Assembly (NCBI GenBank): GCA_964606485.1
Contig: CAZSGP010000003.1
Coordinates: 66,481 to 130,480, forward strand
DNA length: 64,000 bases
Direction of reading: 5' to 3'
DNA from: an uncultured Planctomycetia bacterium
Lineage (GTDB): Bacteria; Omnitrophota; Gorgyraeia; 2-02-FULL-51-18
The position numbers and the translations under genes are program-made. Shown in pieces: positions 1-63,444 of the stretch. The notes under the pieces are model-generated. The model did no database searches. It was not told where the DNA came from and saw only the letters and a list, made by a program, of their open reading frames with translations. Each line of letters starts with the position of its first letter. Positions within the stretch are counted from its first letter, which is position 1.

Positions 1-468
1 GCAGCCCTTGTTTTATTTGTAGCCGCTTCGGTTACGGACTATTTGGATGGCTGGGCTGCGCGACGATTTAATCAGGCGAGTGCTTTTGGCGCGCTGATCG
101 ACCCAATTGCCGATAAAGTTTTAACGCTCTCCGCGTTCCTCATTTTTGTTCAAATTGATTTAATTCCGGCATGGATGGCGGTGCTCGTTGCCGCACGTGA
201 TTTTTTAATCACCGGGTTTCGATTTATGATGCCCAAAGAATCGCCTCGCCAAAAAGCCGAACAGGGGGGTAAGAACAAAACCGTTTTGCAATTTGTTGTA
301 ATTATTGGCGTTTTGATTTATTTAATTGCGAGAGAATGTTCTTTTTGGAATTTGTCCTGGGATGAGACCGCTCATACGGTTATTTACTGGACGATGTTCT
401 GTGTGGTTTTTGCGACGCTTTTCACCGGGGTTCGTTATGTGGTCAAAAATAAAGACATTCTCGGTTAA
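1..468 (+). CDS. CDP-alcohol phosphatidyltransferase family protein (PgsA-like), C-terminal part; 5' end lies outside the window
   Basis: Frame 1 is open from nt 1. The translation AALVLFVAASVTDYLDGWAARRFNQASAFGALIDPIADK carries the D-x2-DG-x2-AR...G-x3-D-x3-D signature of CDP-alcohol phosphatidyltransferases. pgpA follows directly, which is a pgsA-pgpA arrangement. Confidence 0.75.
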   Translation, partial: AALVLFVAASVTDYLDGWAARRFNQASAFGALIDPIADKVLTLSAFLIFVQIDLIPAWMAVLVAARDFLITGFRFMMPKESPRQKAEQGGKNKTVLQFVVIIGVLIYLIARECSFWNLSWDETAHTVIYWTMFCVVFATLFTGVRYVVKNKDILG

Positions 469-892
469 GCTGACTGCATCATTTTTCTTTGTTGGTTATT
501 TTCCATTTTGGTCGGGAGCCTTTGGAAGTTTAGCGGGAATTCTCCTTGCCTGGTACTTTCCAGCGGCGCTCATCCCGCAATTTATCGTCTACACCCTTCT
601 TGGATTTCTAGTTTGCGCCCCCTCAGAAAAAGCATTTGGCAAAAAAGACCCCTCTAAATTTGTGATGGATGAGGTGAGCGGTATGATGCTCACGGTTTTA
701 TTTGTGCCGCATGACCCTGTCCTTTACGTGGCGGGGTATGTGTTATTCCGAATTTTTGATGTCTGGAAGCCGTGGTTGATCAGGCGCATTCAAAATAGCG
801 GGACCCCGAGCTCCATTATGTGGGATGATTTAGCGGCTGGCCTCGTGTCCAATCTGCTGCTCCAAGCCTATCTGTTATTGCCTCTGAAATAA
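437..892 (+). CDS. pgpA: phosphatidylglycerophosphatase A
   Basis: KLTASFFFVGYFPFWSGAFGSLAGILLAWYF...MDEVSGMMLTVLFVP...FDVWKPW matches the PgpA family. The track ORF opens at 326, but the first in-frame ATG after the upstream stop context is 437, and it overlaps the previous gene by 32 nt. Confidence 0.75.
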   Translation: MWSKIKTFSVKLTASFFFVGYFPFWSGAFGSLAGILLAWYFPAALIPQFIVYTLLGFLVCAPSEKAFGKKDPSKFVMDEVSGMMLTVLFVPHDPVLYVAGYVLFRIFDVWKPWLIRRIQNSGTPSSIMWDDLAAGLVSNLLLQAYLLLPLK

Positions 893-960
893 TTGGTTAA
901 TTCTGTCAATAGATATTAACTAGCGCTAGGCAATTTTTTTTCATTTCCCCCTAGAATTTT

Positions 961-991
961 TTGGAACTGTCGGGCATACTCTCCCTACAAT
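961..991 (+). promoter_or_regulatory. putative sigma70-type promoter of the giant ORF (TTGGAA -35, TACAAT -10 at 986-991)
   Basis: TTGGAA at 961-966 and TACAAT at 986-991 are separated by a 19-nt spacer, and the start codon follows 17 nt downstream at 1008. A perfect 10-bp palindrome CTAGCGCTAG sits upstream at 920-929. Confidence 0.3.
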
Positions 992-1007
992 AACCAAAGC
1001 CCAAACT

Positions 1008-1115
1008 ATGCCCAATAAGAAAAATGTTTTTAAATTCTGTACAACTAGACTTATTCAAACCATTTCTTACGGACTGGTTTTATGTTTGCTTGTCCAGGAT
1101 TTGGCCTGGGCCGCG
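1008..1115 (+). other. N-terminal Sec-type signal peptide or signal anchor of the giant protein
   Basis: MPNKKNVFKFCTTRLIQTISYGLVLCLLVQDLAWA|AP has a basic n-region, a ~15-aa hydrophobic core and an AxA-like AWA motif. Confidence 0.5.
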
Positions 1116-4100
1116 CCTGATTTAAAGTTAGGAGTTAAAGGTAAAGAGCAAAGTCTTAAGTGGGCTAAGACGCTTCTTCCCGAATTGCCAGAGTCGATTG
1201 TTAAGCTCGACGACGCTTGGAGGGGGACAGGGGGGTCCGGCCCCTCTGGCACCGTCATCTTAATCCAAGACGCCCATGCGAACCCTTCGGGGCAAATGAA
1301 TCTTGCGAAGACGTTGGACCTCATCTTTAGTCATGGTGGGGAGGGTGCTCAGGTTTTTCTTGAAGCCGGTTTCGGAGACGATTCTCTTTCCTTTTTAAGA
1401 AATCATGGCTCATTGTCCGAGCGCAAGCGAATCGCCTATAAATATTTATCTAAAGGTCTTCTAAACGGAGAAGAGTACTTGGATCTTACAAGCTCTCACA
1501 ACTTCGCTTTGTGGGGCGTGGAAGATAAGGGTCTTTATCTCAAGGCCCTTAAAAATTATAAGGTCGTAGCTCAAGACCGGTCTAAGTTCAAAGACTATCT
1601 CTCAAAGATTCAAACGACACTAGACATTCTAAAGCCGAGACTGTTAAATCCCGTTCTCTATAAGCTCGACCAAGATCGACAAAGCTATCTTAAAGATAAT
1701 CTTTCGCTTACGGATTATGCGGATACTTTACTTCGCGGAAATGACAGGAAGCGATACCCTAACCTTCAAAAAATAAGCTCTCTCAAGAGCTTAGAGCAAA
1801 GACTCTCCCAACAAAATATTTCACCCCAACACCAAAAGAGAATTGTCGAGCGACTACTTAAGCGCTCTAAGTCTCTGGATTATAAATCGATCCTTGAAGA
1901 AGTGAGGCGTTTGGAGAGCGATGCGTTTCAAGCGCTCACCCTGAATGCCGACGAACAAGCGCTTCTGGATGGTCAACGCTCGCTTGAATTCCTAAAGAAA
2001 CTTTTAAATCTAACCCTAACCCCGGAAGAATATGAAGAATACAAAAGCATTCGTCATCCTGAGCGCAGCGAAGGATCTTCTCTAAGCGAATCATCTAGAA
2101 AAGATTCTTCGGCCAGCGGGCCTCAGAATGACCCTGTAGCGCGTCTAACCGGTTTTCTCAATCAGAATATTATGATGCTCGGAAGCTACTACGAGCGAGC
2201 GCTTTTCCTGGAACCCGGATTTGACTCTATCGTGGCGAACGCCGAAAGTTTTTATGGCCTCACTCTTCAGAGAGACGAGGCCTTCGTCCAGAATATGTTA
2301 AAGAAATCGCCTCGAGCCCTTAGTATTTTAATAGCGGGTGGCTACCACACTCCTAATCTCAAGCGACTCTTGAGAGAAAAAAATATCGCTTATATCGTGC
2401 TGACTCCGCAAGTGACGCGGGAAACAAGCATCGCTAAGTATGAAAAGATTCTCTTAAATCAAAATCTCTTAACCCTAAACCCCGCGACTCTTAATATCAC
2501 TCAAAGCCACATGAGAATAGCTCCTCAAAGAAATATTGCGGGGAGCCGGCTGGTGGCAGAGGTGAAAGACTTGAACGAAACATTCAAGGAGGTTCTGCGT
2601 GATCGCAAAGAAGAGATTCGGGAAGCTAAAACTAGGATAGACGATAATTTGGCGGCCGAAATGATCGGTCAAATGCGAAGTGTTGTTGAAATTTTAGTGA
2701 AATCTCACCAGCTCGAAGCTGGAGGATTGATTGAAGAGAAGCTTGGCCGATTAAAAGAGTTAAAAAATTTAAACTCGAACGCAAAGGAGCAGATTGCACA
2801 ACTTTATGTTTTTTTGAAACGGCATTTTAGCTTGTCCCGTTTTCAGAGTTTTGTCACCGAACACGCTTTGCTTCCCGAGCAAAAAATTTCACCCTCAGTT
2901 GAACGCTACGGGTTAAATCTTGGCGATTATGCGGCGCGGTATACGAAAGCGATGAAAGTAAGTGGGATAAAAAAATTCAGCGGCGTGTACCGTGGAGAGT
3001 TGGCCGTGGTTTCTGGTTATCATTCGCTGATCAGCATCGAAGATCTGGACCGGCTTTCCGAGACGCTGGCCCGCAAAGGCTATGGTTTTGTTTTTGAGGA
3101 TGGCCTAACCTTTTCCCGGGCGGTGAATCCAAAAACTGAAAGTCCTGTAGAACTGCTTCAAATTCCCGTAACGGACTCCGAAACCGGGAAGACGATTACC
3201 CGGGTCGAGCTTGTTCTTTATGACAAGCCCGACGTTGAAGAGGAGCTTGGAAAGTACACCACGGCGATTCGCCAAAGACTTTATCCCCACCAATACTACA
3301 GAGAGACGATTCATCATCCCGATCTAAAAAGACATCAGGTGGATTTCGAGAAAAGTATTTCTGAAATCGCCAAAAGACACGGAATTAACGGACGGTTGAG
3401 TGACGATAAAATCAAAAAAATGGAGCTTTCCATCGCTCTGTCGCTGGTGGCCGAAACATTGTTTTTGAAATTGCCAAAGTCTCTGCAAAAGGAAGCCGAA
3501 GAGCTGGGTATACGCTCCGGTGGAGCGTATCCGGGCTTAGTCCATTTGCATAGCTCTATGAGAACCGCCGTGGAAACTCTTGCGAATCATGAAAAATCAG
3601 AAAAACTCATGAGCATAGACGTTGATAAGCGGACCGCAGAACAAATTGCTGATCTTAATGCGCTAGAGCAGAAACTGTCGCTCGAGAGCCAGAAAAATTT
3701 AGCGGGAAAAAACGCTTTTGTGGATAATTTCCCGCTTTTTATTTTAGACGACCATCTTTTTAAGGATATGGGGGAGCGACAACAAGAAGAATGGAAAGCC
3801 TTTTTTAGAAAAGTAGCCAAGTATTATGCTCAGATGCAATCGGATTATGAGAACATTTGGTCGGAAGATTCAACCAATCCGGCAGCGGCCATTATTGAGC
3901 CGAATGCAGTGTCGATTAATCTTTTACCTGGAAGAACAGAGGCGCAAATTTTGCGCGCACTCAAACAGAGTCATTCGCAAGAAGTATTTAGCCAAAGCGT
4001 TGATCTGGATGCAGACTGTCAATTATTTTTAAATGACATCCCCAAAATCATCACCCACAAAGGACTAGCGGAGATCAAGTTGCTACTCGTTGGCATGAAG

Positions 4101-7100
4101 CCTATTCTCCTTAGAGCAGAAAAGCGAGAGCTCTTTAAACGACTGGAAAAAGAAGTTGAGGGTGTTGAGGCACGTATACGCGCGATAGAGCGCTCGATTG
4201 GAGCAAGACTTTCAGAAGAACCCAAAGGCGCTTCTGTTGTTTGGACGCATGCCAAAGAGATGATGGACGCTATTCAAAAAAGTCCAATCGCACACAGCGG
4301 AAGAGATCAGATTAAACAATTAGCCAAAGATCTTAAAACGATCCCCAGTAAAGCGGAGGAAATTCGAAGGGAAACTAGAGAGTTGTCCGGAAAAATTCAG
4401 TTTAATAACGGAGCCGCCGAGAGATTTGATGAAATTTTGAATTCATCGCTCAAGAATGGAGAAGAAAGAGAGCAATTGGCGCGGCTTTATTGGTATCTCG
4501 ACCAAATGTTCACCGTTCGGGAAGCGCCAACAGTTCGCGTTCAGATTCAGTCCACTCAAAAGCAGTTTGGAAAGTATGCGCTGGATTATTATTTGGAATA
4601 TTTAAAAGAGGGAAATCCACAGGATGCCGCCGCGCTTAAAAGCAGGATAGCTGGAGCGGGATCTTATGCTCGGGAGGGGGTGGGCGTGACTGGTGACTCC
4701 GAAGATTTGCTTAACGATGATGAAGTTCAAAAAGCATCGCGAGTGCTGGATTTTGGAGGACTTGGATTTTTATTCGAAGACGGTCTGACCTTCGCCCGCA
4801 TTCTACCAACGACAACGAGCGCGACGGTAAAATCCTTGTTCATCTATACAAAGAAAAAGGGCGACGCCGCTATCCAAGTCAGGCCCGAGCTTTGGCTGTA
4901 CGCGATGCCGGCAGATCCAGCAACGAAGCTTTTGTTTTTTCAAGACGTCATGGGTGATTTGTATCCGCAGATCGCGCACAGTCCCTTGGTGAAGCGGGTT
5001 TTAGAACAAAAAGAGGCGCGTATTGATGATTATCCGCATCTACCCGGTTTTCTTCCTTCGAAGCTCATCCGCTCTTATTTTGACCTGACAAAGTCAGAAT
5101 CATCCCCTAAGGATTTATTTAAAAGACTGGAAAAGGCAAAAGCGCTTGAACCTCAAGCGCGACAATTAGCTCTTCATGAATTTTACGCTCACATTGGAAA
5201 GGCGCTTTATTTGACCGCAGGAAGCGAGTTTAAGGCTCGTTTCAAAGCAAAGCTTTTTTCGGGGGTTTTGCCGAATGGAGCGATTTATCTTAAAAACTAC
5301 GGGGCACAGCTTAAGAAGTACTACGCGCTCGTGGAGTCTGGCCGGGCCGATTATTGGTCGGAGCAATTGGCGGAGGATGAGCTTGCGGAGAATTTCTTCG
5401 GGGACGTCTTTGCATTTTATTGTTTAAACCAGCTTTTAAAAATACGCTCAATTTACCAGATGAGTGACGAAGACAGTTCTGTGGAATTGACGGTGTTTGT
5501 TAAAGAGTTTGTGGAAAGTCTTAAAGAAAAACATGCTCGAGGTTTGAATGCTTGGCAAATAGAGGATGAGGATGCCGCTAAGAAGATCGAATCGGTTCAG
5601 GCGATCATTCAAGAGCCCAATTGGGTCGGCAGCCCGAAGCATCTTTCAGACGAAACGACAGAGCCTTCTACGCTGAGAGCAGTTGCCAGTCATTTTATTC
5701 GCGAAACGGTTACAGAAGCTAAGAAGCTCTTTGAGAACCCCAATAGAACGGAAAATCAATTGGCGTGGATGATCGAAGGGTTGAGTATTGCCATAAGGGA
5801 TTTTACCCCCTTACTTGAAGATCGTAAGACGACTCGGCTAGCATCTTTAATTTTGGTCCTACCGGTTTACGCGAGGGCACTTTTTTACAGAGGAGATTAT
5901 TCCCAAATGCTCCGGTTTATACAATTAAACCTGCATTATTTGGCCCATTATCTGGAATCGATTGAAGAGAAAAATCTTGCTCAGGCAAATTTTGCGGTAA
6001 GCGTTCACGGGGATTTGCGTAGAACCGTTACCGACGCTATGGCTTTTTTGATCGTAAACGGAAAATACGAATTTGTAAAACCCCTGCAAGAGGCGCTCGA
6101 TAAACTGCGGTCACTCAAGCTCCCAGAGGGCGCTCGTTTAGCGGATTTAAAAGCCTCTTATATTGAATACATAAAAAGGAACAGCGAAGAAATAGACGCC
6201 GCCGTGCTTTACGTGAAGGATCCTTCAAAAGCGCTCAAAATCCAAGCGGAGTTAAGCTCGGCAATTGGTATCCTGAAAGGCGGATTTAAAGTAAAAGCGG
6301 GGGACTTTGTTGACGAGAAATTCTTAAAACTCGCCGGTCTTAAGGAATTTAACCGCTCTCAAAAGGAGCAGTTGGTCTGCCTCTATCTATTTATCAGGGA
6401 TGAATTCAAATACCCTAATTTAATTTCCTTTATCAGTAAGCCCGTGATTACTCCGGAGTCTAAAATTTCAGAATCCATGGAGCGGTACGGCATTCGAGCA
6501 AAGGATTATTATTTGCGTTATGCCAAAAATAAAATGGATACCGAAAATTTTGCCGATCATGAAGGGTTTCTAGATCAATTCATTGGTGTTTTTCGAGCAG
6601 AAGATGAGCGGGTGAGCGGGTACGAGCCTGTGATTACCAGAGAGGATCTGGATGCTCTTTCCGAGATCCTTGCGAAAAGAGGTTTTGGTTTTGTTTTTGA
6701 GGATGGACTCACCTATTCACGGACCATTAATCCTAATGCGTTGGGGCCTGTTCAAATGGTGAATCTGCCTATCAAAGACACCGTGTCCGGAAAGATCGTG
6801 GTCCGGCCTGAAATTGTTCTTTTTGATCGACCGCTCAGCGGCTCCGAGAAGATCAAGCTGTTTGATCGCCAGATGATAGAGTGGCTTTATCCGGACCTGG
6901 CTTTCTCAAGCGTATTTGGAGATCGTTTTCTTGGGCCGCACCAACAGAGCATTGAAGCGTGTATCGCGGCCATTCGCAAGTCCGGTCGAAACACCACCAT
7001 GGATGACGAGAAAATCAAAGGCGCCGCACAACTTGTGTTGTTGTCGATTATTTTTGACTCCCTGTACGAGCGCTTACCCGAAAATTTTATTGCCCGTATT

Positions 7101-10100
7101 GCCAGGATTGCGGCCACCAACAATGTAACGACTCCCGGACCCGCCTACTTAAGAATAATCGGCCGGCACGGAGTGGATGTTATTAATGATAGAAATGAGC
7201 GTGATTCACTTGGTGCTAAAGCGCCCGATCAAAGAACTCCGGATGAGAATCAGAAGATCGATGATCTGAGTTACAGCATCTCCAAGGAATCTATTAAAAG
7301 ACGGATTGGAAAAGTTTTCTTCTCTACCTTTGGCCCCTTGTATGTTTTGAATAAAAATATTCTTAGTCGTGATGGAGAGAGAGTGCCCGATGAAGTTAAA
7401 AAATTATTCGAAGATGTGTCTAAGTATTTTATTGGATTACACGATGATTACCACAATATCTGGGAAGTTCCGGAGGTGGACGCTAATAAACTTCTGCTAG
7501 AAGAACCAAATCCCATTTCAGCGACTTTGAAGCCGTACGCCTTGGAGATACAAGCGATCCGCGTGAACGAAGCTGTCGTGAATGACCCGAATTTTAAAGC
7601 ATCCAACCCCGAGAGTCATCGCGACACCGCGAATGCGTTTATCATGGACATGAAACACATTCGAACCGAAGAGGGATTGTCCCGGATGAGAAGCGTCCTG
7701 TTTGATTTGGTGGCGGCTCTTAAAACGGACAAGTTGAAAGATTTGGCCGCTCAAGCTGAAAGCGCCTTTGAAGAGGCTAAGAATAGAGTAGGTTTGGTGA
7801 CCGCCGCACGGCTTAGTATAGAAACTGGCAATCGCAATCAGGAGATTATTGATCTGTCCCGACAGGCTCTGAGAGTTTATGGTCTAAAAAATTTTGCAAC
7901 CATAATGATCGCTTCCGTTTCGGAGTCAACCCCAGCTTTAGACGAAAGCGGCGCACATCAATTAGACTTGCGTGATGCAACTGCTTTTGCAGAGCTTAGT
8001 CGATTCATTCACGAGGATTACAAAAAGGATTATTCTTATCAAGCGTTGTTCCAAAATTGGAAAGATCTGGAAAGTGTGCATCGCGGGGACGATTACAATG
8101 GGGTTTTTAAGACCCCCGCCGCCAAACAGGATGTATTTTCTTACTACATTTTTGGACGCGTAATCGCTGATGATAAAGATTTTGAAATCGCTTTGAATAA
8201 ACACGATGATGAGGACAGAATTCAGCATAGCGCTCATCGCGCCGCTAAAATTTTTACTGCCATCGACAAATTAGCCCGAGAGTCCGGAGGAGTATTTACA
8301 CTGGGCGAACTTCGAAAAGCCGTCTTTACCGATGTGGATTCAAAATATTTTGATCTGGATCTGGAGCTCATCGACCGCGCGGTACAAATTGCGACGGGTA
8401 GTTTTGAAGAAGGCGCTCGCCTCTCCTGCGAATACATGGAGATGCAAAGAATGGAATTCCTAGGGCGCATTGAAGAAAATGAGACTCGCCGGAAAAAATT
8501 GGCCGACGAACTGACTAAAAAAGCCAAGGCGTATGCGGATGAAATGGAGCGAATCCTCCAAGAGGCCAATTCGAAATTAAAATCTATTCCCAATTCGGAA
8601 GAAATTGTCCACGAAATCGTGCCAGTTATCAAAAAAACATTGAATGACGTGCTCACAAACCCCGCACTGGCGGACCCGGCCAAGTTTGAGCAGGCACTCG
8701 CAACTAACCTAGTCGACGGCATGAAAAACGGCCATCACGCGGGCATTGCAGGGGCGTTGGGGGCGGATTCTCTCAAAGATATCCAAGAGCTGCTTAGCAC
8801 AACCAAGCTAGCCGATGGGAAAAATTTTGTGCAAGCCGTCATGGACTGGCAGGAACAAAATCAAATCTTAACCAAGCTCAAAAAATACGCTGAATCAACA
8901 CTGGTTGAAGGGGTGAGTGTTCCGGAGCTTAAGAAAAAGCAAGGCTTTAAACCCGGTCAAACGGGGCAAGCGTCTGGCGCGCGATTGGCCGCTAAACAGG
9001 AAGTTGATTTTATTGATACGCTCAAAGAATTAAGTGACGACGAAAAGAAGCTTCTTAAGGAGCACTTTGTGGATATGGCGAGCCAAGAATCCAAGCCTTT
9101 GATTGGCCGGGCCGACGATGTGCGTAAAGTTGTATCCGCGCTCTCAAAGCCGAGCGGTTTTAAAAATAGCGTTCTTTTGGTCGGAAAAAAGGGCGTTGGT
9201 AAGTCGGCGCTGGTGCGCATGATTGCTAGATCCATTAAAGAAAAGAAAATTCCCGGCCCGCTTGAGCAGAGAAGAATTTATACCTTAAAAAAATCACTGG
9301 GGTCGACTCCAAGCGACATGAATGACGCGCTGGCTAAGCTTCTGCCGATTTTAGAAAAAACAAAAAATAAAATTATTATTTTCATCGACGAATTTCATGT
9401 GCTGACGCGCGGGATCAACAACACTACGGATTTTGCGGTGGCGGATACCTTGAAACCGTATCTTGAAGAGGGCCGCGTTACCATGATTGGTGCGACGACG
9501 ATTGCCGAGTGCAAGCGATTTATCGAGTCGGAGCCGGGCGGGGCATTTAAAGACCGTTTTGTCGAAGTGAGGCTGGAGGAAACAGACGCTGAAACCACCA
9601 AGGATATCTTGGACGGTTTAAAAGATTTTTATGAGGAAGAGTTTGGGATTCCCATTTCCGAAGGTGCCATTGAAATTGCCGTTGAGCTTTCGGAGCGCTT
9701 CTTGCCGGAGAAATCATTTCCCCGAAAAGCCGTTGACCTCTTGGAGAACACGCTGTCGCACGCTTCAAGTCTTGTGGCCCAGCGCAATTTGCAGATCGAC
9801 GATCTGACAAAGCAGTTGGAATTAAAAACTAAACGCTACATCGGCAACAAGAAAAAAGGTAAAAACGGAGACGACCGGGCGACGACCCAGCTTCACAATC
9901 AAATCATCACCTTGACTCAAGGCATTCTGAAGCTAAAAGCGGAGAGAGATGCTTTAAAAATCACCGAACTCAGTGATCAGGATGTCCGGCGCTACCTGGC
10001 CGATACCACCGGAATTGATTTGGCGCATTTGTCGCAAGGGGAGGCCCAGCGGATGCTGGTGGCCGAAGATGTAATTGGTCAAAAAATCATCGGCCAAGAG

Positions 10101-13100
10101 GCTGCGGTGGGTGCTATTTCCAAGGCGATTCGCCGCTCCCGCTCCGGTATGCGCGACCCCAAGCGTCCCATCGGCAGTTTTGTGCTAGCGGGTCCCACCG
10201 GCGTCGGAAAAACGGAGCTAGCCAAGGCTTTGGCCTTGTTTATGTTTGGCGATGAGTCCAAGATGAAACGCCTGGACATGAGCGAATACATGGAAAAGCA
10301 CAATGCTTCTCGAATGATTGGTTCGCCGCCGGGTTATATCGGGTTTGAAGCGGGCGGAGAGCTTACCGAATACGTCAAAAAAAATCCGTACGCGGTGATT
10401 TTATTCGACGAAATTGAAAAAGCTCATCCGGATGTATTTAATACTCTTTTGCAAATTTTGTCGGATGGCCGCCTGACGGACGGTAAAGGCGAAACCGTCG
10501 ATTTTAAAAATACAGTGATTATTCTCACATCTAATGTCGGCATGACTTCCATTGCGGATTATTTCAAAGGCTTCGAGGAATCCATTAAGCACGCTGAAAG
10601 CTCTGAGGGAATTGATCTAGCGATAAAAGGGATGAACGAAAGAATTGCCGAAGCAGTAAAGAAAGGAATTAACGGTGACCCCGCGCGTTTTAAACCGGAA
10701 TTTTTAAACCGCTTGGATGCAGTGATTCCGATGAGCATCTTGTCGCCTGAAAACGTAAAAGGTATTGCTCGTATCAAAGTGGATAAGGAAATCAGGGCCC
10801 GGCTCGAGAGCGAAAAATGGAGTGTCACTATTTTGCCGGAAGTTCACGAGCTCGTTGCAAAAGAGGGTTACGACCCCGTTTTCGGTGCCCGTCCGCTTAA
10901 CCGCGCCATTGACCGCATGATTTTAGATCCTTTAAGCACTCAAGTCTTGATGACGAAAGCTAAAGAGGGAGAAGAAGCGTCCGGAAACATCGTGATTTCA
11001 GCGATTGGCAAAGAAATTCATTTTAAAATTGATTTAAAGAAACAAGGTGTGATTCAAACCCTGCCTTATCCTGAGGAGCAAAAAGCCATTTATGAAGCAC
11101 TGTTTCAAGAAATCAATAACACTCTCGACAGTGCTGATAGCGCGCTTACGGAAGAAACGCTTAAAAAAATCCTTAAAGTTGATGATAGGGCCGGTGTTTT
11201 AAGCTCCCAAAGCGCCGACTACGGCGTTTACAAGCATAATCAGCCGCTCGCATTTGAAGCAGAAAAAGATAAATCAAAGCGCTCCAATCACAATGCTCCC
11301 AGTAAGGATTCGGGGGTTTTGAAAGCTCAGGAACTCATTTTAGCCGCACTGCAGAGCGAGCCTAAGGTAAACGCAGTAATGAAATTTATTCAATTATTTT
11401 CAAAATGGGCCAAAGAAAATAATGTCGACGCCGAGTTTATCAATCTGGAATGGACTGTTAAAGATAAGAAGCTCCTGATTCGCATTAAAAAAGCCGATAA
11501 AAATGTGATTAAAGATGACGAAGCGAAGACTCTAGTCGAATTCCTTCAGCATAATCCCAAAACCCAAGAAGAGGCTGACGAGATAGCCCGTAAAATTGCC
11601 GAAGAAAAAGGGATTACGGGCGGACAAGCCCTTTTGCGTCTCAAGGCGGCGTTTATTGCGCTCGGAGGAGAATCGACGTTTGGAACATTTGAAAACACTT
11701 ATTGGGCAAGCATTGTGTTAGATGAAGATCTTCAAAAGATGGCGGACGAGTCAAAGCTTAAAGCCGAGACAGCCTATAAGCTGAAGTTGTTGGAGGCATT
11801 ATTTGATTCTCTCCCTGAGCGGTCTATGAGTGATGATCCCAAAAAAACCAATCTCCCGATGGATCGATTTAAATTTTCTATTACCGATGAATTGTGTGGG
11901 TATAAAGGTTATAAAGCGCGCAAACCGTCCGAATCAGATCAAAATAATAAAACAGTTCTTATTTTAGTGAATCCAAAAACAGCGAACTGGAAAATATTTT
12001 TTCAGGATTTCCGATTATATTTAGATGAGTACTACCCCTATTACATGGCCCGCTATTCGGCTTTGGTCGAAAAACTTCAATTTGGAAAACTTGAAGAGCG
12101 GGAGTCGGTTGTTGTCGCGGCAGGTGCGACGGACCAAACTGTCAAAAATCAAGGGGTAGCACCGAAGTCTATTCCTCAGGAATACACGGACATGCTAAAA
12201 AACATTAATGATTTGTACCAATATTTTCCAACTAACATAGCGATTCGGCTTAAGGACAAGCCTCTAGTTGCGGCCATTGTGCTTTATCACGCCTTATTTA
12301 AAAATGATGAGCTTGAGTCTTTTATGAATCTCTGCGTAAATCAGCAAATCGATGAATTTAAAAGGCAGTTAAATGGTTTGCCGGTTATACTAAGTTTGAT
12401 TAATAGATACGATGCTACCAGTATTGAGAGCGGATCCTTGATAGCCCCTGGAGTTCTCCCGCAAATCTGCTTTGTCTCGGGCCTGGAGGAGGATGAGCGT
12501 GGTTCGTATAGAAGATTTTTCTTAGGAAGAACCGCTACAAAATTCTATTCAGGTGATAGTTCGGATTTGGCAACTCAATCAAAATTAGTTATCAACGTTT
12601 CTGAATTAAATGAGCTTCGCGAGAATCTAAAAAAAGCAAAGATCACCAGCCTCCAACGGTCGGCAGCGAAGAGCTCCTCATCTAAAGAATTAAGTAGTGT
12701 GTCCCCGGAATCTGCGGAATCTACCAAGGCCCAAGGAAAACTTTCAAGAAAAACTGTTGCAGAGCTGTTTAGACAGTTTGCCGATCAGGTTAATATCCGT
12801 GGGCCTATCGACAATGAATGTTTTGTCGAATTTAATAGGTCCAACTCGAATGAATTCGTCTTAGAAAAATATACCCAGCGCCGTCAGCAAAGGGCGCGCA
12901 TAAAAATCCAGTCGGAGAAGGGACGAATCCGGAAATTAGAAATTACGCTGTGGCCCGCAGATAAAGGACCTGTAAGAGCGCTTTATATCAACAGAGCCGT
13001 CAATCTAATCCTAGATGTTGTTTTTTTAGGTAAAACACAAGAAGTAATCGTGGTGGTTGATGATAGGGAGCTTGTTGGATTTTTAAGTGCCTATGAATCC

Positions 13101-16100
13101 AATGCAGATAAATCCGATGAATCCATGGAGACTTTAAACACTCGCGTGATCGCCAAATCCGACGCTTTGAAGCGCGCTCAGGAAGATCCTGATTTCGCTA
13201 AGGCATTGAAGTGGAGGAATAAAAAATCTGCTGCACCATCTAACCCACTCGAAGGAGATGTTAAAGCTATTCTTGAGCAAGCGCGTCAGGCCAATGAAAA
13301 TGAGTCGGGCGATCTTAGTGCTGTGAGGGGCGCCGACAATGAACTTGCCATTCGAGCCGAGGATTTTTCTTTGCTGACGACAAAGGATTTCGAAGAAATT
13401 TTAGATAGAGCTTTTTTAGTAGAAGAATCGACGCTTTCAGCTCGTGCTATCCGTTTGACGATAGGCGATTGGGCTAGAAGAAAAAACCAACTAGTTTATT
13501 TGCGCGAGCAGGAAGAGGGGGATGATTCAGTATCGGTATTCGAGCTAAAAATTGGGCAAGCGATCCAGGCGAGCGAATTGATGAAGTGGCTACTGGAGCA
13601 GGACCTTCCGACGGATAACCCCGAAGTCCAGGCCGCTTGGGGAAAAGCTAAAATTAAAATCCGCCGTTTGGCGATAGAGAAGATTACAGGAAGGCAGTCT
13701 GCCGCTTCGGCTCAAGATGTCAAAAATCAAGGACTGACACCGAATGCACCGAATGAATTTAAAGCGCAAGTCCTTCAAAGAGCGTTGGCGAATGTGCGCA
13801 ATAAAAATATTCGCCGCTTCAAGGGTGGAGCCGTAACCAAGGCGTCGGAATCTGAATCTACATTGGTTCTTTTAGACTTCCCCCAAGACGACGCTGATTA
13901 CGATCCCGATCTATTCAGTCCTAGAGTCGCTTCGAAACTGCACCCGGCGGCCATGGAGCTTGCTCGGGAGATTGTCGAGTATCTGAATGGACAGTCGGGC
14001 AACAAGCGCAAAGCCTATGTGAATCAAGACGTTGAGACCGTTTTTGAAGGGGATGTTGAGATTGAGAATGTCTCTGCCGTGGGCATTTCCTTTGAGCGAA
14101 TGACGCAAACTCTAGAAGAAGCCCAGGCTGGCACTGTCGAGCTTTTGCGCGTTGTCGAAGAGTTCCTATTAAAAAAACAAGCTTCGCTTTCAAGTGTCGG
14201 CGATAAATTAAGTAAGGTGTCCCCGGAATCTGCTACTTCAGGTTGGCAATTATTGAATCGTGAGGGGACTGAATATATCAAAATTTCTGTCCCAAAAAAT
14301 TTGGAAGATAGGTTGCTAGGGAAGCCGCTTTTACAAAAGCTAGTTTATCTTTTAGCAGTTGAAGATCTTGTGCAAGCGAAAGATTTTATAAAATCGAATC
14401 TTTCCAAAATTTTAGCAGAAATAAAGAAATTAAATGTCGGGGAAGGACGACTCTGGGCTACAGCCCCGTCCGGAACTGTATTGATTAACGATGGAGCGCC
14501 TACGGAAGGTGCGCTGATTATTCGATTGGAAGAATTTGAAACTACTTTCACAGAATCGAAACAGGAGAGTGCGCAGGTTATATTTAATTACCCTTTATTT
14601 GAAACTGACGTATATTTTAACGCCGATGAAAAAAACGGAAAAAATCTTCGGGAGGTTGGCGCGATAAAAACTCCTTTTGACCAGAGTCCTGTTTTGTGTT
14701 ATCCCGAAGAAATGATTGAGCTTCGCCGTAATCTGGAAGCGCAGAAAGCGAATTCGGGGGACACGAAACCTAATTCTGCAAAAGGCACGGGCGAATTAAG
14801 TAAGGTGTCCCCGGGTTCTAAAGAAAAAGAAAAAAATGTTTCTCAGTGGCAAAAATTTGTGGAAGAGTTGAAGACTAGCGAATCTGCCGCCCCCATCCCC
14901 CCAGCCTCGGCGGACAAGTCAGCTCAAACTGTCAAAAATCAAGCACTGACACCGAATATAACTAAAATTATCTCCCAGTTAGAATCTAAATTAAGTGATG
15001 ACAATTGGGCTGTCTGTCTAGCCGCCGCCACAGCACTCGGACCTATCTACCAAGCTCTCTTCACTCAAGGTAAGATGTCCTTAGAAACCCTAGAATCTAA
15101 ATTAAGAGATAACAATTGGGCTGTCCGTCAAGCCGCCGCCATAGCACTCGGACCTATCTACCAAACTCTCATCACTCAAGGCAAAAAAGTCTCCTTAGAA
15201 ACCTTAGAATCTAAATTAAGCGATTACGAGCGGGATGCCGCCGCCACAGTACTTGGATTTATCTACCAAACTCTCATCACTCAAGGCAAAAAAGTCTTTT
15301 TAAAAACCCTAGAATCTAAATTAATGGATCGCGATGGGACTGTCCGTCGAGCCTCCGTCACAGCACTCGGATCCATCTACCAAACTCTCTTCACTGAAGG
15401 CAAGATATCCTTAGAAACCCTAGATTCTAAATTAATGGATCGCAATGGGACTGTCCGTCAAGCCGCCGCCACAGCACTCGGACCTATCTACCAAGCTCTC
15501 TTCACTCAAGGTAAGATGTCCTTAGAAACCCTAGAATCTAAATTAAGAGATAACAATTGGGCTGTCCGTCAAGCCGCCGCCATAGCACTCGGACCTATCT
15601 ACCAAACTCTCATCACTCAAGGCAAAAAAGTCTCCCTAAAAACCCTAGAATCTAAATTAAGTGATGGCACTTGGACTGTCCAACAAGCCGCCGTCATAGC
15701 ACTCGGACCTATCTACCAAACTCTCTTCACTCAAGGCAAGATGTCCTTAAAAACCCTAGATTCTAAATTAATGGATCGCAATGGGACTGTCCGTCAAGCC
15801 TCCGTCATAGCACTCGGACCTATCTACCAAACTCTCTTCACTGAAGGCAAGATATCCTTAGAAGCCCTAGAATCTAAATTAAGTGATGACGATGAGGCTG
15901 TCCGCCAAGCCGCCGTCACGGCCTTGGGATCTGTCGCGCTATCAATGATTGTAGCGCAGGAGGCAAAACCCGCCGCGCCCGTCCCCACAGCCTCTGCGGA
16001 CAAGAAGGCTCAAAATATCAAAAGAGAATTAAAAAGCGCGTCCCCGAAATCAAAACTTCAAGAGGAGATGGAAGTGGTTGGCGAATATATTCAAAAGCTA

Positions 16101-18974
16101 CGGACAAATTCAGTAGAAGTGAAACCTGATCGCGCATCACAAGTTTCCATCACCCCAAAAACACAACAAGAGTTTGTGGATCAGCTAAAAGCCAGTGTGA
16201 TGAGCGACCCTAGGCTGGGCGAGGTGGAGGATGAACCCACGATTAGCGTTTCTAATGGGGTTGTGACCGTTCAAAAAGAAGTGGCGGGTAACTTCGATGA
16301 GATTCTCGATAGGCAAATGAAAGTGGCTTATGACGAGGGGGGAATTGTCACAGAAGTTGAGGTTGAGGACGTAAATTTATTTAATCCAAGGGATTGGACT
16401 GAGGGCAATGTTATTGATGTTGGTTTCCTTGCCGAGGGTCAGTGTTTGGTTGTAGTGGTTAAAGATGAGTCGCTCAGGTATTTCATGGATGAATTTCAGG
16501 ACGATATTACAGCGATAGCGAATTTAGGATTCAACTACGAAATAATCTCTCTTTCAGAAGCCATTCGAAGATGCGAAGAGCTTGGCTCAATTTTCAAGTT
16601 TACCGATATTACGAATTCAGACGACACAAAACCTAAGTCTGGGGTCGGCAAAGAATTAAGTAATGTGTCCCTGGAATCTGCAGTAAATTCCGTGCCTACG
16701 GTTTTCCGGCGACCAAATAATGTAGAGCTTGAGAGCGCGCAAGAAGCAGTTAGATTACTCAAAGCGCTAATCCAGTCAGGCACTTTTATTCGCATTGCGT
16801 ATCGATTTATGGATGGAGATGAAGATGTTTCCCGTAGCGTGATCAAGGTGAAAAATGACCAGGACAAATGGCTGCTGGTTCAATACAAGCCGGACCAGGA
16901 TCGCGACGGCTGGCAGCTATTTGATTTGGAAAAAATTTATCAAGACGGCGGATTTATGTACTGGAGCGCAACTTCGCAAGGATTGATCATTTCCAATACA
17001 AGAGACTATTTAGACGACTACCAAAACATAGTCCCTAGAGTATCGTCAGAAATTGCATTGGCTGATTATAAAGGTCTGCGTGCTAACTCAGGGGACACGA
17101 AACCTAATTCTGCAAAAGGCACGGGCGAATTAAGTAAGGTGTTCCCGGGTTCTACTGAGAAGGCGCGGGAATGGCTTGATAAAATTGATACTTGGTTGGT
17201 GCAGACTGAGAACTCAGATCAGATCGATCAATCGATTCGATATGTGGTGGAAGAAGATTCGATTATTAGTATGGGGTTCGGACTGGGTTTTAATGCAGGA
17301 ATGACAATGCCTCGAGTGTTCTCCATAGCCGTCAATTTTGAAAAGGTGAATTGGGAGCAATTATTTAGCGCGATCGAAGACCATGTTTTAGATGAGTATG
17401 GAGACAAAGCAGCTTTTAATTGGCGGAAATTTGTAGAAGAGCTGAAGTCATCCACCGGCGCACGGCTTTCCGAGGAAGAAGAAAAGGTTCGAAAAATTAA
17501 TTTAGCCGGCCAAGCCCCGCGGACAATGGGCCTCAAAAACTTTGCTAGCCTCATGATTTTACCGCTCTATCATGCGGAGCTTGCTCCAGAAGGCGAGATT
17601 ACGGGAGACAAAATTCATAAGGCATATGCGCGGGATTTTGCCTACGAAACTATTTATGACCGGTGGAAGGGCTCGGAGCTGATGCACGGCAATGACGATT
17701 ACAATCGAGCGCTTCCCAGCAAAGAAGAAAAAAGAAAAATGCTGTCTTATTATCTTTTTGGGAAATTTATCATCGGAGAAAAAGGTCTGGAGGCCGCTCT
17801 AAACTACAGAGACCGCGAGAGTGAAATCGAATACAGTGCCATGGTTGCTCCTAAAATTTTCAAGGCGATTGCCGATCTTACGCAGGATCGAGCGGGGAGC
17901 TTTACGATAAATGATGTTCGCAAACGACTTGTCGCTCAAAAAGAAGACGGGGAGCATTTCGAGTTGTACTTAACCCTGATTGACCGGGCAGTGGATATTG
18001 CGGAAAACCGGTTTGAGGAAAACGGTGCGCGGTTGGCTCAGGTCTATGTTCGATTCGCGGCGAGCGTGTATCAAGCACAGAAAAAAGACGGTGAGATCGC
18101 GGTGGGACAACACCGCTTTGAAATTCAGTTTAACGCTAAAAGTGGAGAGCTTCTTCTTATTGATAAGCGTTCCGGAAATTTTGAAAAAATTCCAATGAGA
18201 AATCCGGCGCTGTGGAATCCAAAATCAGGCGAGTTTCAAGTAGAGGCGTCGTTAGCGGATCTTCAGATAGCGCTGCATGCGGCTCAACGCGGAAATCGAT
18301 TTGTGATGGAGAGTTTACCGGCCGAAATATTAAATTCTTCTACAAAGACCTTGATTGAGCTCGGGGTGGATCATTTGCTGGCGGACCCTTCTCAGAGACC
18401 GCTTCTTGCGGCGGCGCTTAAAAGAATTTCCGATTCGCCACTCGCTAAAAATTCTAAAATTGTTTTAAAGTCTATCGGTAATGATATTCGGGTGAGTGAG
18501 CTTCTGGAAAATATCCCCAATAAAGACAAATGGATTGTTGGCTCGTACGAGGAGCTCGATCCGGAATATCGTTTGAACGCGCAGAGAGTCCAGGTGGGAG
18601 AGCTGGGTTGTAACGATGGGTTGCTTATTAAAAACGTCCGCTTTTTGCCGACCCAAAAAGCAACAAGCGGCGATATTTTTAATTACGAAGGTGTCCTTCA
18701 GGCAGCCCTTTTAGAAGGAAAAATTTCATCAGATGTTTTAAAAAATGCGACCCATTCGGAGTCCCAAGCCCTTATTCACGCATTTGAAGAGCTGCTTGGA
18801 CGAACGATTCCTCTCGAGCAATACGGCGCGTTTATCCAGGTGATTACGGGCGTTGAAAAAGTCGATCCCAAAGCGGCACTGGCTTTCACTGTGGCTGCGG
18901 CGTTTCATTTGAAGATCCAACAGAGAGTGGCCGGCGCGCGTCTAGCGCGTTTGATGGCCGAGCGGGCCGCTTAA
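1008..18974 (+). CDS. giant multidomain protein (5,988 aa): signal peptide, three paralogous modules, embedded ClpB/ClpC-like double AAA+ ATPase, HEAT-like repeat array; overall function unknown
   Basis: A single uninterrupted ORF of 17,967 nt. An open frame this long cannot arise by chance, and internal conserved domains confirm the frame throughout. Confidence 0.9.
   Translation: [5988 protein letters not shown]
1240..2400 (+). other. possible TraB/GumN/Tiki-superfamily-like region of the giant protein
   Basis: [13 protein letters not shown] near the start and [26 protein letters not shown] near the end resemble the GTxH...GxxHL...G(Y/F)xV motif pair of the TraB/GumN family, separated by ~360 aa. 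This is a motif-level match only. Confidence 0.25.
2770..8000 (+). repeat. three tandem paralogous protein modules (A1 ~2770-4450, A2 ~4450-6340, A3 ~6340-7870) inside the giant ORF
   Basis: Each module holds ...QLY(V/W/L)(F/Y)L...ERYG(L/I)...DYY(L/A)(R/E)Y...[14 protein letters not shown] at 3079-3110, [13 protein letters not shown] at 4760-4790 and [14 protein letters not shown] at 6681-6712, and further on KYYA...DYxNIWSE...EPN. DNA identity is only local: 20 nt are identical at 3085 and 6687. Confidence 0.6.
7870..8430 (+). repeat. module B, copy 1 (GLKNFA...DDYN...SYYIFG...LIDRAVQIA...FEEGARL)
   Basis: Paralogous to 17525-18040, where the same ordered motif string reads [10 protein letters not shown]...DDYN...SYYLFG...LIDRAVDIA...FEENGARL. 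Confidence 0.55.
9000..10950 (+). other. embedded Hsp100 (ClpB/ClpC-type) tandem AAA+ ATPase unit within the giant protein (aa ~2665-3315)
   Basis: D1 reads [11 protein letters not shown]...[10 protein letters not shown] (Walker A, 9183-9212)...IIFIDEFHV (Walker B)...IGATT...DRF. The short coiled-coil linker is followed by D2, [48 protein letters not shown] (10192-10221)...[17 protein letters not shown]...[46 protein letters not shown]...GARPLNRAI, which is about 70% identical to ClpB D2 by eye. Confidence 0.85.
14979..15935 (+). repeat. 9 tandem HEAT/PBS-lyase-like repeats (37-40 aa each; LESKL-D--W-VRQAAA-ALGPIYQ-L-TQGK-SLET)
   Basis: Tandem 111-120-nt coding repeats. The block 15020-15192 recurs almost exactly at 15461-15633, an offset of 441 nt spanning four units. 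Confidence 0.7.
17525..18040 (+). repeat. module B, copy 2
   Basis: See the first module B copy at 7870-8430. Confidence 0.55.
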
Positions 18975-41878: not shown

Positions 41879-42633
41879 AAATGTTTACAGCGCTCGATAA
41901 TCTCATTTACTTAATCTGCAAAGGCATTAATTCGGCACTTCGAATAACCGCAGACGAAGCGATGATTCGCAATGAAATCCGGGAGTGGCGCCAATCCATT
42001 CTCGTGGCTCTTGTGCTCATGATTGTGATCCGCTCTTTTTTTGTTCAAGCCTTTAAAATTCCTTCGGGCTCGATGCGGCCGACACTGATGGAGGGGGATA
42101 AGCTATTTGTTGAGAAGCTTTCGTACCGCTTTTCGGGGCCTAAGCGAGGGGATATCATGGTTTTCAAGTACCCTTACTCGGGCGCGATCTCGTTTATGGA
42201 TCAGAGCATCCTCGTTCGAGATGGCCACATCAATGTTGACGGGGAAGATCTTGAGAGCCCGCCTTTTTACAAAGCGCTTTATTACAAAGTGGTTTACCAC
42301 TATTTAGGAGAGAAAGACTTTATTAAACGGCTCGTGGCTTTTCCGGGTGAAACGGTGGAAATTAAGGACGGAAAAATTTGGGTGAATTCGCAGTGCCTCA
42401 CAGATCCGGAGCTCTTCGGAAAATTTTATTACTATAACCACGATCCGTTTGGCGGGCCCAACGAGAAGATACAAGTTCCCGAAAATTCTTACTACGTCCT
42501 GGGTGACAACAGCGCTAATTCAACCGACAGCCGCTTCTGGGGATTTGTTCCCAAAAAGAACCTTGTAGGTAGGGCGGTATTTCGTTGGTGGGTTTGGCCT
42601 TTTGACGTGAAACGCCTAGGAACACTCCGCTAA
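41875..42633 (+). CDS. lepB: signal peptidase I
   Basis: IPSGSMRPTL...GDNSANSTDSRFWGFVP, the S26 boxes, positioned after lepA. Confidence 0.9.
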   Translation: MKMFTALDNLIYLICKGINSALRITADEAMIRNEIREWRQSILVALVLMIVIRSFFVQAFKIPSGSMRPTLMEGDKLFVEKLSYRFSGPKRGDIMVFKYPYSGAISFMDQSILVRDGHINVDGEDLESPPFYKALYYKVVYHYLGEKDFIKRLVAFPGETVEIKDGKIWVNSQCLTDPELFGKFYYYNHDPFGGPNEKIQVPENSYYVLGDNSANSTDSRFWGFVPKKNLVGRAVFRWWVWPFDVKRLGTLR

Positions 42634-62817: not shown

Positions 62818-63444
62818 ATGAGAATGAATCAGATCCTAGTCGGAATTTTATTGCTAAGCGCCTTCATAGGGAGCAAGACCGCCATGAGCGAAATTGAAAT
62901 GCCGTCGTACCGAGTCATCCAAAAGGAAAAAGCGATAGAGATTCGCGAATACTCCCCGACGATTTGCGCAGAAGTAACCGTGTCAGGAGAGCGCAGTAAA
63001 GCGATCAATGCCGGATTCCGGCTTTTAGCGGATTATATTTTTGGCAACAACGCTCCCAAAAAGGCCATTGCGATGACTGCGCCGGTTGCTCAGCAAAAAA
63101 GCGAAACGATTTCCATGACGGCTCCGGTGACTCAAACAAAAAATGGGGACGACTGGAAAGTTCAATTTACGATGCCCTCGGCTTATACGCTCGAAACTTT
63201 GCCCAAGCCGAATAACCCTGAGGTTAAAATTATCTCCAAGCCGTCGTACCGCGTGGCGGTGATCCAATTCTCTGGTTTTTGGAGTGAGGGTAGCCTCAAG
63301 AAGCAATCGGCTAAGCTCGAAGACTATGCGAAGACCAATAACCTCAAGCTTACCGGAAATCCCACTTACGCATTTTATAACCCACCCTGGACATTGCCAT
63401 TTTTTCGGCGCAATGAAATATTTTACGAGTTGAAAACTAGCTAA
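62818..63444 (+). CDS. SOUL/HBP-family haem-binding protein with signal peptide
   Basis: The signal peptide is MRMNQILVGILLLSAFIGSKTAMS. MPSYRVIQKEKAIEIREYSP and C-terminal AFYNPPWTLPFFRRNEI match the SOUL family. Confidence 0.65.
   Translation: MRMNQILVGILLLSAFIGSKTAMSEIEMPSYRVIQKEKAIEIREYSPTICAEVTVSGERSKAINAGFRLLADYIFGNNAPKKAIAMTAPVAQQKSETISMTAPVTQTKNGDDWKVQFTMPSAYTLETLPKPNNPEVKIISKPSYRVAVIQFSGFWSEGSLKKQSAKLEDYAKTNNLKLTGNPTYAFYNPPWTLPFFRRNEIFYELKTS

Follow-up and report, generated by a model that had tools for sequence, protein, structure and literature searches.

How could a protein that opens with a secretory signal peptide make use of an ATP-driven motor carried within the same chain? 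This question is raised by a gene in a 64,000-nucleotide stretch of DNA (hereafter, the window) from an uncultured Planctomycetia bacterium, which is placed in Omnitrophota in the GTDB lineage (NCBI GenBank assembly GCA_964606485.1, contig CAZSGP010000003.1, positions 66,481 to 130,480 of the forward strand). An earlier note, made from the sequence alone, had drawn attention to a Sec signal peptide and an ATPase within positions 1008-10950 of the window, and had pointed out that the ATPase, if exported, would be left with no supply of ATP. The gene is a single open reading frame (ORF) of 5,988 amino acids (aa) at 1008-18974 on the + strand, and 1008-10950 represents just the first 3,314 aa of its product (hereafter, the giant). 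An AAA+ module does end there, but the gene continues for 8 kb beyond, and the note had missed both the length of the ORF and its membership in a very large protein family.

The paradox itself proved to be real and recurrent, with a conserved signal of the cleavable type, intact ATPase residues, and a kinase or a phosphoenolpyruvate carboxykinase (PEPCK) in other members of the family. The answer that we tentatively favor, with somewhat less than even confidence, is that the whole chain is exported and that its ATP-requiring cassettes would act in a target cell, by analogy with the logic of MARTX toxins and CdiA; injection into another cell was one of the options listed in the earlier note. 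This reading fits the signal peptide, the cassette structure, the depletion of cysteine, and the predatory or epibiotic habits of Omnitrophota that are reported by West-Roberts et al. (10.1101/2023.11.21.568195).

Signal peptide and conserved head

The signal peptide occupies aa 1-35 (1008..1112, + strand), as judged from the sequence, its hydropathy, and its conservation in homologues. The N-terminus reads MPNKKNVFKFCTTRLIQTISYGLVLCLLVQDLAWA|APDLK, in which the n-region contributes K4, K5, K9, and R14 with no acidic residue ahead of the core, the h-region spans the 15 residues L15-V29 with a strictly apolar part of 12 (T18-V29), and the c-region is QDLAWA. Since A33 is at -3 and A35 at -1, with A36-P37 next and thus no Pro at +1, a cut by signal peptidase I (SPase I) is predicted at A35|A36. 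The basic n-region, the 15-residue core, and the AWA-AP motif described in the earlier note were, therefore, all present. The core is also the only segment of the giant with a 19-residue Kyte-Doolittle mean above 1.6; charged residues occur in the remaining hydropathy peaks, which resemble buried strands or helices.

These features are conserved throughout the family. A crude test in three parts required an n-region with a net positive charge, a hydropathy of at least 1.8 over 11 residues, and, past the core, a small-x-small site; 141 of the 159 family members with complete N-termini passed it. Taken singly, a net charge of at least +1 was found in 149 of them and a small-x-small site after the core in 152, and the apolar core had a median of 12 residues (5-95% range 11-18). 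As a control, the same test was passed by 5 of the 41 other ORFs in the window: two membrane proteins, one evident secreted protein, and two cytoplasmic proteins. The approximately 40 homologues from the first search all open with the same type of segment, and stand-alone homologues of approximately 500 aa (e.g., P0035, P0036, and P0038) bear textbook secretory signals, such as MRKTVRSILTLLLLLSGSFAAYA|VADE. A signal peptidase I gene, lepB, is encoded in the same window (41875-42633, adjoining lepA) and was counted in favor of signal-peptide processing. Based on its sequence features, we consider the N-terminus to be a cleavable signal peptide of the Sec/SPase I type and not an artefact of gene calling. 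A Tat signal was rejected because RR is absent from the N-terminus, as was a lipoprotein signal because C26 follows L-V-L, with Leu at -1, and homologues do not keep a Cys at this position.

The earlier note had suggested that an uncleaved signal anchor would give a type II membrane protein with a cytoplasmic bulk, a topology that was misstated because an N-in/C-out arrangement puts the bulk outside. An anchor of the opposite orientation, N-out/C-in, would indeed leave the bulk in the cytoplasm and solve the ATP problem, and the AlphaFold2 (AF2) model gives residues 5-35 as one helix. However, the charge of +4 on the N-terminal side of the core opposes this orientation under the positive-inside rule, the 12-residue apolar core has the length of a signal peptide and would not suffice for a membrane anchor, and conservation extends to the small-x-small site. 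The classical secretory signals of the stand-alone homologues and the depletion of Cys in the cargo also stand against it, and we regard this topology as highly improbable.

Following the signal peptide is a conserved N-terminal head at aa ~36-490 (1113..2477, + strand), which was delimited by alignment, the AF2 model, weak PF04187 matches, and its many relatives. A profile of the first 520 residues of the giant retrieved 10,016 cluster representatives at E <=1e-3 (6,870 at <=1e-30) among 1.84 billion. The best 150 of these relatives are mostly 1,000-7,482 aa long, and the head is always N-terminal in them. In contigs representing one genome per species, 554 loci encode the head; the best 80 of the 554 are nearly all from metagenome-assembled genomes (MAGs) labelled Omnitrophota or from bins named 'uncultured Planctomycetia', with 4-6 head-family paralogues per MAG, and all of the named relatives are annotated as Candidatus Omnitrophota/Omnitrophica. 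The plan common to the family consists of a signal peptide, the conserved head of ~480 aa, variable cargo cassettes, and, often, a conserved C-terminal domain.

Regarding the identity of the head, the AF2 model (predicted local distance difference test, pLDDT, 83) shows an alpha/beta core broken by a helical insert of ~260 residues. The invariant residues are D88, H90, N92, and Q96 (QDAHxN), E119, R139, and GG[YF]H, the last of which is GGYHT in the giant. The N-terminal QDAHxN, the conserved Glu and Arg, and the C-terminal GGxH are reminiscent of the Tiki/TraB/ChaN/erythromycin-esterase group, and many members of the Tiki/TraB/ChaN superfamily are extracytoplasmic hydrolases or binders. On the other hand, the helical insert sets the head apart from Tiki and ChaN, and all matches to PF04187 (ChaN) were below the threshold: they were collinear on the GGxH region in 5 of 26 members and reached at most 21 bits against the Pfam threshold of 27.7, and no other Pfam model exceeded its threshold for the head either. 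A Foldseek search of the PDB with the head fold returned nothing at E <=0.001, with ChaN at rank 26 (E = 1.1), and the head profile found no match among PDB sequences. The head is possibly a divergent hydrolase of the Tiki/ChaN superfamily, to judge from this pattern of residues and the weak PF04187 matches.

The head also bears on where translation begins. ATG 1008 is the furthest upstream start of the frame, and the second ATG (M97) falls within the head, past D88, H90, N92, and Q96. The earlier note had considered that the true start may be downstream of the hydrophobic segment, which would have dissolved the paradox; such starts were rejected because a start at M97 would cut off these four invariant residues. 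More generally, a wrong start codon or an assembly chimera of a secreted-protein gene with a clp gene may be suspected because there is no clear Shine-Dalgarno sequence before ATG 1008, repeats could mislead assemblers, and the giant itself is absent from the databases searched. Nevertheless, Shine-Dalgarno use is weak across the genes of the window, an 18-kb open frame at 45% GC is not a chance product, and the same arrangement, with the head in front, is found in thousands of independent proteins of up to 7,482 aa. Moreover, a GARLA junction motif and a C-terminal domain, both described below, place the two ends of the ORF in the same family. An artefact of this kind is, thus, scarcely credible.

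A ClpC-like AAA+ module within the chain

A double AAA+ unfoldase module of the ClpC/ClpB type lies at aa ~2697-3323 (9096..10976, + strand) and was recognized from Pfam matches and alignments to solved structures. Pfam models for AAA, AAA_lid_9, AAA_2 (E 2.8e-61), and ClpB_D2-small match at aa ~2722-3323, and no Clp_N (PF02861) match was found in the giant by the Pfam scan. The closest solved structure is Staphylococcus aureus ClpC (6em8, E 2.5e-129), to which the module aligns in a single collinear stretch through a short middle region of ~70 aa, whereas ClpB and Hsp104 align in two stretches. The long coiled-coil middle domain of ClpB (~120 aa) is not present, and ClpB specifically was rejected for this reason. 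The ATPase had previously been called ClpB-like; an Hsp100 motor is indeed present, but ClpC/ClpB-like, with the layout of ClpC, is the more exact description.

Concerning its catalytic residues, the second nucleotide-binding domain (NBD2) retains Walker A (GPTGVGKT), Walker B (ILFDEIEKAH), the GYIG pore loop, sensor 1, the Arg finger (FLNRLD), and sensor 2 (GARPLNR). NBD1 retains Walker A (GKKGVGKS) and Walker B (IIFIDEFH); its pore loop KYRGEFE is replaced by STPSDMND, with the loss of the pore-loop Tyr. At the position for ClpP docking, the NBD2 loop has a ClpC-like length and reads K-G-F versus [LIV]-G-[FL]. The nearest database relatives of the module are free-standing ClpC/ClpB proteins with 36-42% identity, mostly of 800-890 aa (range 629-892). 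Since the catalytic residues are all kept at only ~40% identity, selection for ATP hydrolysis is indicated. The module appears from these intact motifs to be catalytically competent and, if so, would have to act where ATP is present, which disfavors the non-hydrolysing scaffold that had been offered as one way out of the paradox.

One place with ATP is the cytoplasm of the producer itself, and the module may act there in cis, before or during export, by keeping the chain unfolded or feeding it to the translocon. Export runs from the N- to the C-terminus, and a module in the middle of the chain would still be cytoplasmic while the N-terminal 2,700 residues are translocated. The degenerate pore loop of NBD1 and the absent Clp_N suggest a non-standard relationship with the substrate, and a similar role in self-export has been proposed for SecA-like domains in other Omnitrophota giants, according to West-Roberts et al. 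(10.1101/2023.11.21.568195). However, BLAST found no AAA+ relative of the module among 139 other family representatives, so that the family as a whole does not use it as a device for export, and Hsp100 hexamers are difficult to square with nascent chains. We consider an action in cis to be very unlikely. The search of the larger database similarly returned ordinary free-standing ClpB/ClpC proteins and no giant relatives of the module.

A precedent for an unfoldase of this type beyond the cytoplasm is Plasmodium HSP101, a component of PTEX, which was itself recovered as a structural-sequence relative of the module (6e10/6e11, E ~1e-95). Both are double-ring unfoldases of the ClpB/ClpC type associated with a secretory signal, and HSP101 works outside the cytoplasm of its producer. 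HSP101 differs in being eukaryotic, free-standing (~900 aa), and equipped with an N-domain, and it acts in the parasitophorous vacuole, whereas the present module is embedded in a bacterial chain of 5,988 aa.

Junction motifs, cassettes, and cysteine-poor cargo

The chain downstream of the head is punctuated by a short motif, G[AS]RL. Its first copy, GSRL at aa 512-515 (2541..2552, + strand), lies in a disordered linker after the head (AF2 pLDDT ~34 for residues 491-520), and further copies of 12 nt each start at nt 4200, 6129, 7803, 8412, 8976, 17457, 18024, and 18933 on the + strand. The nine copies, at aa 512, 1065, 1708, 2266, 2469, 2657, 5484, 5673, and 5976, consist of seven GARL, one GSRL, and one AARL, and the other ORFs in the window, with 14,493 residues, contain no GARL. 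The codons of the motif vary (AGA versus CGN for Arg; TTA/TTG versus CTN for Leu), which indicates selection on the peptide and not on the DNA; a signal at the level of DNA was rejected on the same grounds.

In the cargo of 113 long family members (310,861 residues), GARL is the most enriched 4-mer, with 442 occurrences against 14.2 expected (31-fold). The logo of the junction is [AS]-G-A-R-L-A, with flanks that are not conserved. The number of copies per protein has a median of five and a maximum of 31, the median spacing is 263 residues, and the preferred variant (GA, AA, or GS) is specific to each protein beyond chance (chi-square p ~1e-26, an approximate value). In all of the long-form homologues examined, the head is followed by the motif. 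Pfam domains in relatives are bracketed by it, as for phosphoglucomutase (PGM) at 802-1327 of P0260 between motifs at 783 and 1339, and the internal repeats of the giant begin and end exactly at junction motifs. Such a pattern is the one expected if cassettes were bounded by sites for processing or motifs for docking, and [AS]GARLA is, on this basis, a candidate cleavage site.

The cassettes delimited in this manner include three paralogues, B1 (aa 513-1065), B2 (1066-1708), and B3 (1709-2266), at 2544..7805 on the + strand, which were recognized as internal repeats. B1 matches B3 and B2 matches more weakly, with a GFGFVFEDGLT motif in each; none had a Pfam or NCBIfam match or a homologue among 5.8 billion proteins. 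Cassettes C1 (aa 2267-2469) and D (2470-2657) follow at 7806..8978 (+ strand), again recognized from internal repeats and with no domain matches, and C2 (aa 5485-5673; 17460..18026, + strand) is a paralogue of C1 with 39% identity. An array of HEAT repeats at aa ~4651-4968 (14958..15911, + strand) was identified by Pfam HEAT/HEAT_2 matches and by internal repeats with 59-81% identity. Its units of ~48 aa are near-identical, reaching 81% identity over 146 aa, and the array reflects recent tandem amplification and has probably caused assemblies to break. GC skew is negative at 14-16 kb only, over these repeats. NCBIfam and permissive Pfam scans of the cassettes other than the AAA+ and HEAT modules gave noise only.

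A stretch free of GARL (12140-17150, aa ~3712-5380) carries linker peptides of its own: [QD][TD]VKNQ[GA][VL][AT]P is found at aa 3712, 4238, and 4642, and [KE]LS[KSN]V[SF][PL][EG]S occurs ~5 times. Two copies of the latter lie inside an identical 15-residue string, TKPNSAKGTGELSKV (aa 4586 and 5364), and the surrounding 30-aa blocks are 83% identical.

The chain closes with a conserved family domain at aa 5674-5988, which, together with the stop codon, occupies 18027..18974 (+ strand) and was defined by the family alignment and the AF2 model (pLDDT 79). At least 47 of the 113 long members carry this domain, of ~285 aa, at their very C-terminus and typically end in MAEQAA-COOH; the giant ends in GARLARLMAERAA-COOH. 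Foldseek found no fold match for it in the PDB at E <=0.001. The Ala-Ala C-terminus is reminiscent of tail recognition of the ssrA/Tsp type.

The cargo of the family is almost free of cysteine. Over the 310,861 residues, Cys accounts for 0.084%, and 53 of the 113 long members lack it entirely, among them two proteins as long as 7,482 and 7,416 aa; no Cys occurs in the PGM and PEPCK modules either. The giant contains 0.28% (17 Cys, two of which are in the signal peptide) versus 1.03% in 41 neighboring ORFs. Extreme avoidance of Cys is typical of secretion-competent proteins that cross an oxidising periplasm, such as RTX toxins and the passengers of autotransporters, and, to our knowledge, is not expected of proteins that remain in the cytoplasm. 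The near absence of Cys from the cargo throughout the family thus argues, indirectly, that the cargo, and not the head alone, leaves the cytoplasm.

Most of the family cargo is unannotatable. The recognizable part includes a Ser/Thr kinase behind the same head in P0003, PEPCK_ATP together with PGM in P0203, PGM in three further members, and fn3 domains in one. When the cassettes of the giant, the P0003 kinase, and housekeeping enzymes of the window were compared with the 139 representatives by BLAST, only PGM (in four proteins) and the C-terminal domain were matched. The gene after P0003 (ENA ERZ1426835) encodes a protein of 6,417 aa with Laminin_G_3, PGM_PMM, FHA, Glyco_transf_5, and ROK domains, and is another giant chain of cytoplasm-type enzymes. 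At the locus of P0001, the head alone matches and there is no continuation of the cassettes of the giant. The ORFs around P0001 (L002 1-21917) resemble fragments of two giant genes broken by frameshifts, probably through long-read errors; the fragments are poor in Cys and carry GARLA/GSRLA motifs. The lengths of family members may, therefore, be underestimated in public gene calls.

Two further explanations of the paradox depend on how these observations are read. In the first, only the head is exported: a cut on the cytoplasmic side would sever the chain at its first G[AS]RL (aa 512), and the cassettes would work in the producer as parts of a bacterial polyprotein. The position of this motif, directly after the head, in a disordered linker, and in every long-form homologue examined, agrees with such a cut, as do the ordinary cytoplasmic types of enzyme in the cargo (PGM, PEPCK_ATP, and the kinase) and the radical SAM and histidine-kinase ATPase domains listed for long Omnitrophota proteins in a bioRxiv preprint (10.64898/2026.06.07.730766). 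The ATP problem would be removed without a target cell. However, cargo that stays inside is at odds with its near freedom from Cys as compared with ~1% in the cytoplasmic proteins of the same genome, and the tie of the cargo to an exported head and a conserved C-terminal domain is left unexplained. Furthermore, a cytoplasmic protease would have to act on a chain already in SecYEG, and we know of no such mechanism. The suggestion in the earlier note that only an N-terminal part is exported has, thus, gained a conserved motif at the appropriate place, but the Cys-poor cargo argues that the cargo exits too, and we consider it to be unlikely.

The second accepts that the whole chain is exported and keeps it in the periplasm or on the cell surface, with the module serving as an ATP-independent holdase or scaffold or using extracellular ATP. 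The single hydrophobic segment at the N-terminus, the depletion of Cys, the scaffold-type HEAT repeats, and the fn3 domains of a relative are consistent with such a location. Against it are the catalytic residues of NBD2 and the Walker A and B motifs of NBD1, kept at ~40% identity to ClpC/ClpB, and no source of ATP in the bacterial periplasm is known to us. Residence at the periphery of the producer is, in our estimation, quite unlikely.

Proposed export of the whole chain and its parallels

In the reading that we favor, the pre-protein would enter the Sec translocon through its cleavable signal peptide, probably co-translationally, and the whole chain would then be exported from the producer. 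Cutting at the junction motifs, for which the Tiki-like head is a possible protease, may set the cassettes free, and those that require ATP would work in a target cell (prey or host) or in another compartment containing ATP. The observations themselves extend to the conserved signal peptide, the intact ATPase motifs, the family architecture, the junction motif, and the depletion of Cys; that the chain is exported as a whole, is cut at the motif, and reaches a target cell is our inference.

Several observations weigh against this proposal. No secretion-system, outer-membrane transporter, or immunity-like gene adjoins the gene, the neighbors of which are pgpA, cinA, recA, and the his/trp operons, and 63 paralogous loci revealed no conserved partner gene upstream. 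Domains for translocation or receptor binding were not recognized, and most of the chain is without detectable homology by Pfam, NCBIfam, and the search of 5.8 billion proteins. Full His, Trp, and Thr pathways are encoded, so that the window gives no clear sign of dependence on a host. PGM, PEPCK, and similar metabolic enzymes would be unusual as the payload of a toxin. Cleavage at GARLA is putative, and in the AF2 model of the C-terminal domain the junction motif sits in a predicted helix instead of a linker.

A close parallel in architecture is with MARTX toxins of Vibrio and relatives, the ATP-using effector domains of which are released at inter-domain sites inside the host. Both are giant chains with conserved ends and interchangeable central enzyme cassettes; MARTX chains are secreted and some of their cassettes need the ATP of a target cell, as would be the case for the giant. 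MARTX toxins are poor in Cys and are cut by a built-in protease at short inter-domain sites; the giant similarly has a junction motif at cassette boundaries and Cys-poor cargo. In contrast, MARTX has a C-terminal type I secretion signal and no Sec signal peptide, and its protease is a cysteine protease that is activated by inositol hexakisphosphate (InsP6) and cuts after Leu. No sequence relationship between the giant and MARTX was found. The gingipain/HagA polyproteins of Porphyromonas gingivalis, which are processed outside the cytoplasm, resemble the giant in other respects: an N-terminal Sec signal, a hydrolase near the N-terminus (putative in the giant), Arg-containing cleavage sites between modules (candidate sites in the giant), and a conserved C-terminal domain. 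Their C-terminus is a type IX secretion signal of ~80 aa, in contrast to the alpha/beta domain of ~285 aa without a fold match in the giant, their cargo is composed of adhesin domains and not ATPases, and no homology was detected.

Large proteins of Omnitrophota have already been described, and the tension between an export signal and domains of a cytoplasmic type is visible in the literature. In the bioRxiv preprint (10.64898/2026.06.07.730766), 94% of 916 long Omnitrophota proteins have a signal peptide or transmembrane helices, 8.6% have a signal peptide only, and metabolic Pfam content is recorded on signal-bearing chains. The study of West-Roberts et al. (10.1101/2023.11.21.568195) suggests cleavage of the giants into products and states that the cleavage points are unknown. 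The present protein shares with the published giants the phylum, a signal-bearing chain with cytoplasmic-type Pfam content, and the suggestion of cleavage, and differs in that the published work centers on proteins of >10,000-30,000 aa with many transmembrane helices and SecA-like domains. An 'Archaeovorin' or 'Dockerin-type' giant (>30,000 aa, with numerous transmembrane helices and SecA_DEAD) was rejected as its identity: at 5,988 aa, it has a single hydrophobic segment, which is N-terminal, and Pfam gave neither a SecA nor a dockerin match. Term searches of the two sources revealed no account of the head, of the GARLA junction or C-terminal domain, of Cys depletion, or of a ClpC-like cassette, and we found nothing relevant on Omnitrophota polyproteins or on ChaN/Tiki proteins of Omnitrophica in the searchable literature, which is incomplete. 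A family of exported, cassette-built giants is, thus, apparently undescribed.

If generalized, the reading would amount to an undescribed export system throughout Omnitrophota, composed of the head, GARLA-bounded cassettes, and the C-terminal domain. Dozens of paralogous Cys-free polyproteins per genome would pass through Sec, be cut at GARLA, perhaps by the Tiki-like head, and deliver ATP-driven machines (a ClpC-type unfoldase, kinases, and PEP carboxykinase) into another cell or an extracytoplasmic compartment containing ATP. We regard this wider proposal as possible, though on balance doubtful; if true, proteins would be delivered between cells in a manner that is new, and a bacterial Hsp100 would, for the first time, be seen to act beyond the cytoplasm of its producer.

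The locus is a tractable, medium-sized example of the puzzle posed by the giant proteins of Omnitrophota. It offers a defined signal peptide, a candidate cleavage site, a head that may be a protease, a C-terminal domain, and an ATPase cassette that is easily assayed, and [AS]GARLA is a candidate for the cleavage points left open by West-Roberts et al. If the cargo is exported and active, the biology of Hsp100 in bacteria would extend beyond the cytoplasm, and the protein would show by what means large payloads are delivered by ultra-small bacteria that live as predators or epibionts; cargo that stays inside would instead represent a rare bacterial polyprotein strategy.

The chromosomal setting of the gene is ordinary. 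pgpA lies upstream and cinA, which is convergent, downstream; beyond cinA are recA, recX, alaS, the his and trp operons, lepA, lepB, pgsA, plsY, gpsA, hom, and thrC. The G+C content of the giant gene (0.445-0.469 in window positions 1-18000) is slightly below that of the rest (18000-64000, mostly 0.46-0.50). The RecA of the window is also present on a Logan metagenome contig, which ends inside the giant gene. Near the far end of the window, the product of the ORF at 62818-63444 also carries a clear signal peptide (MRMNQILVGILLLSAFIGSKTAMS...).

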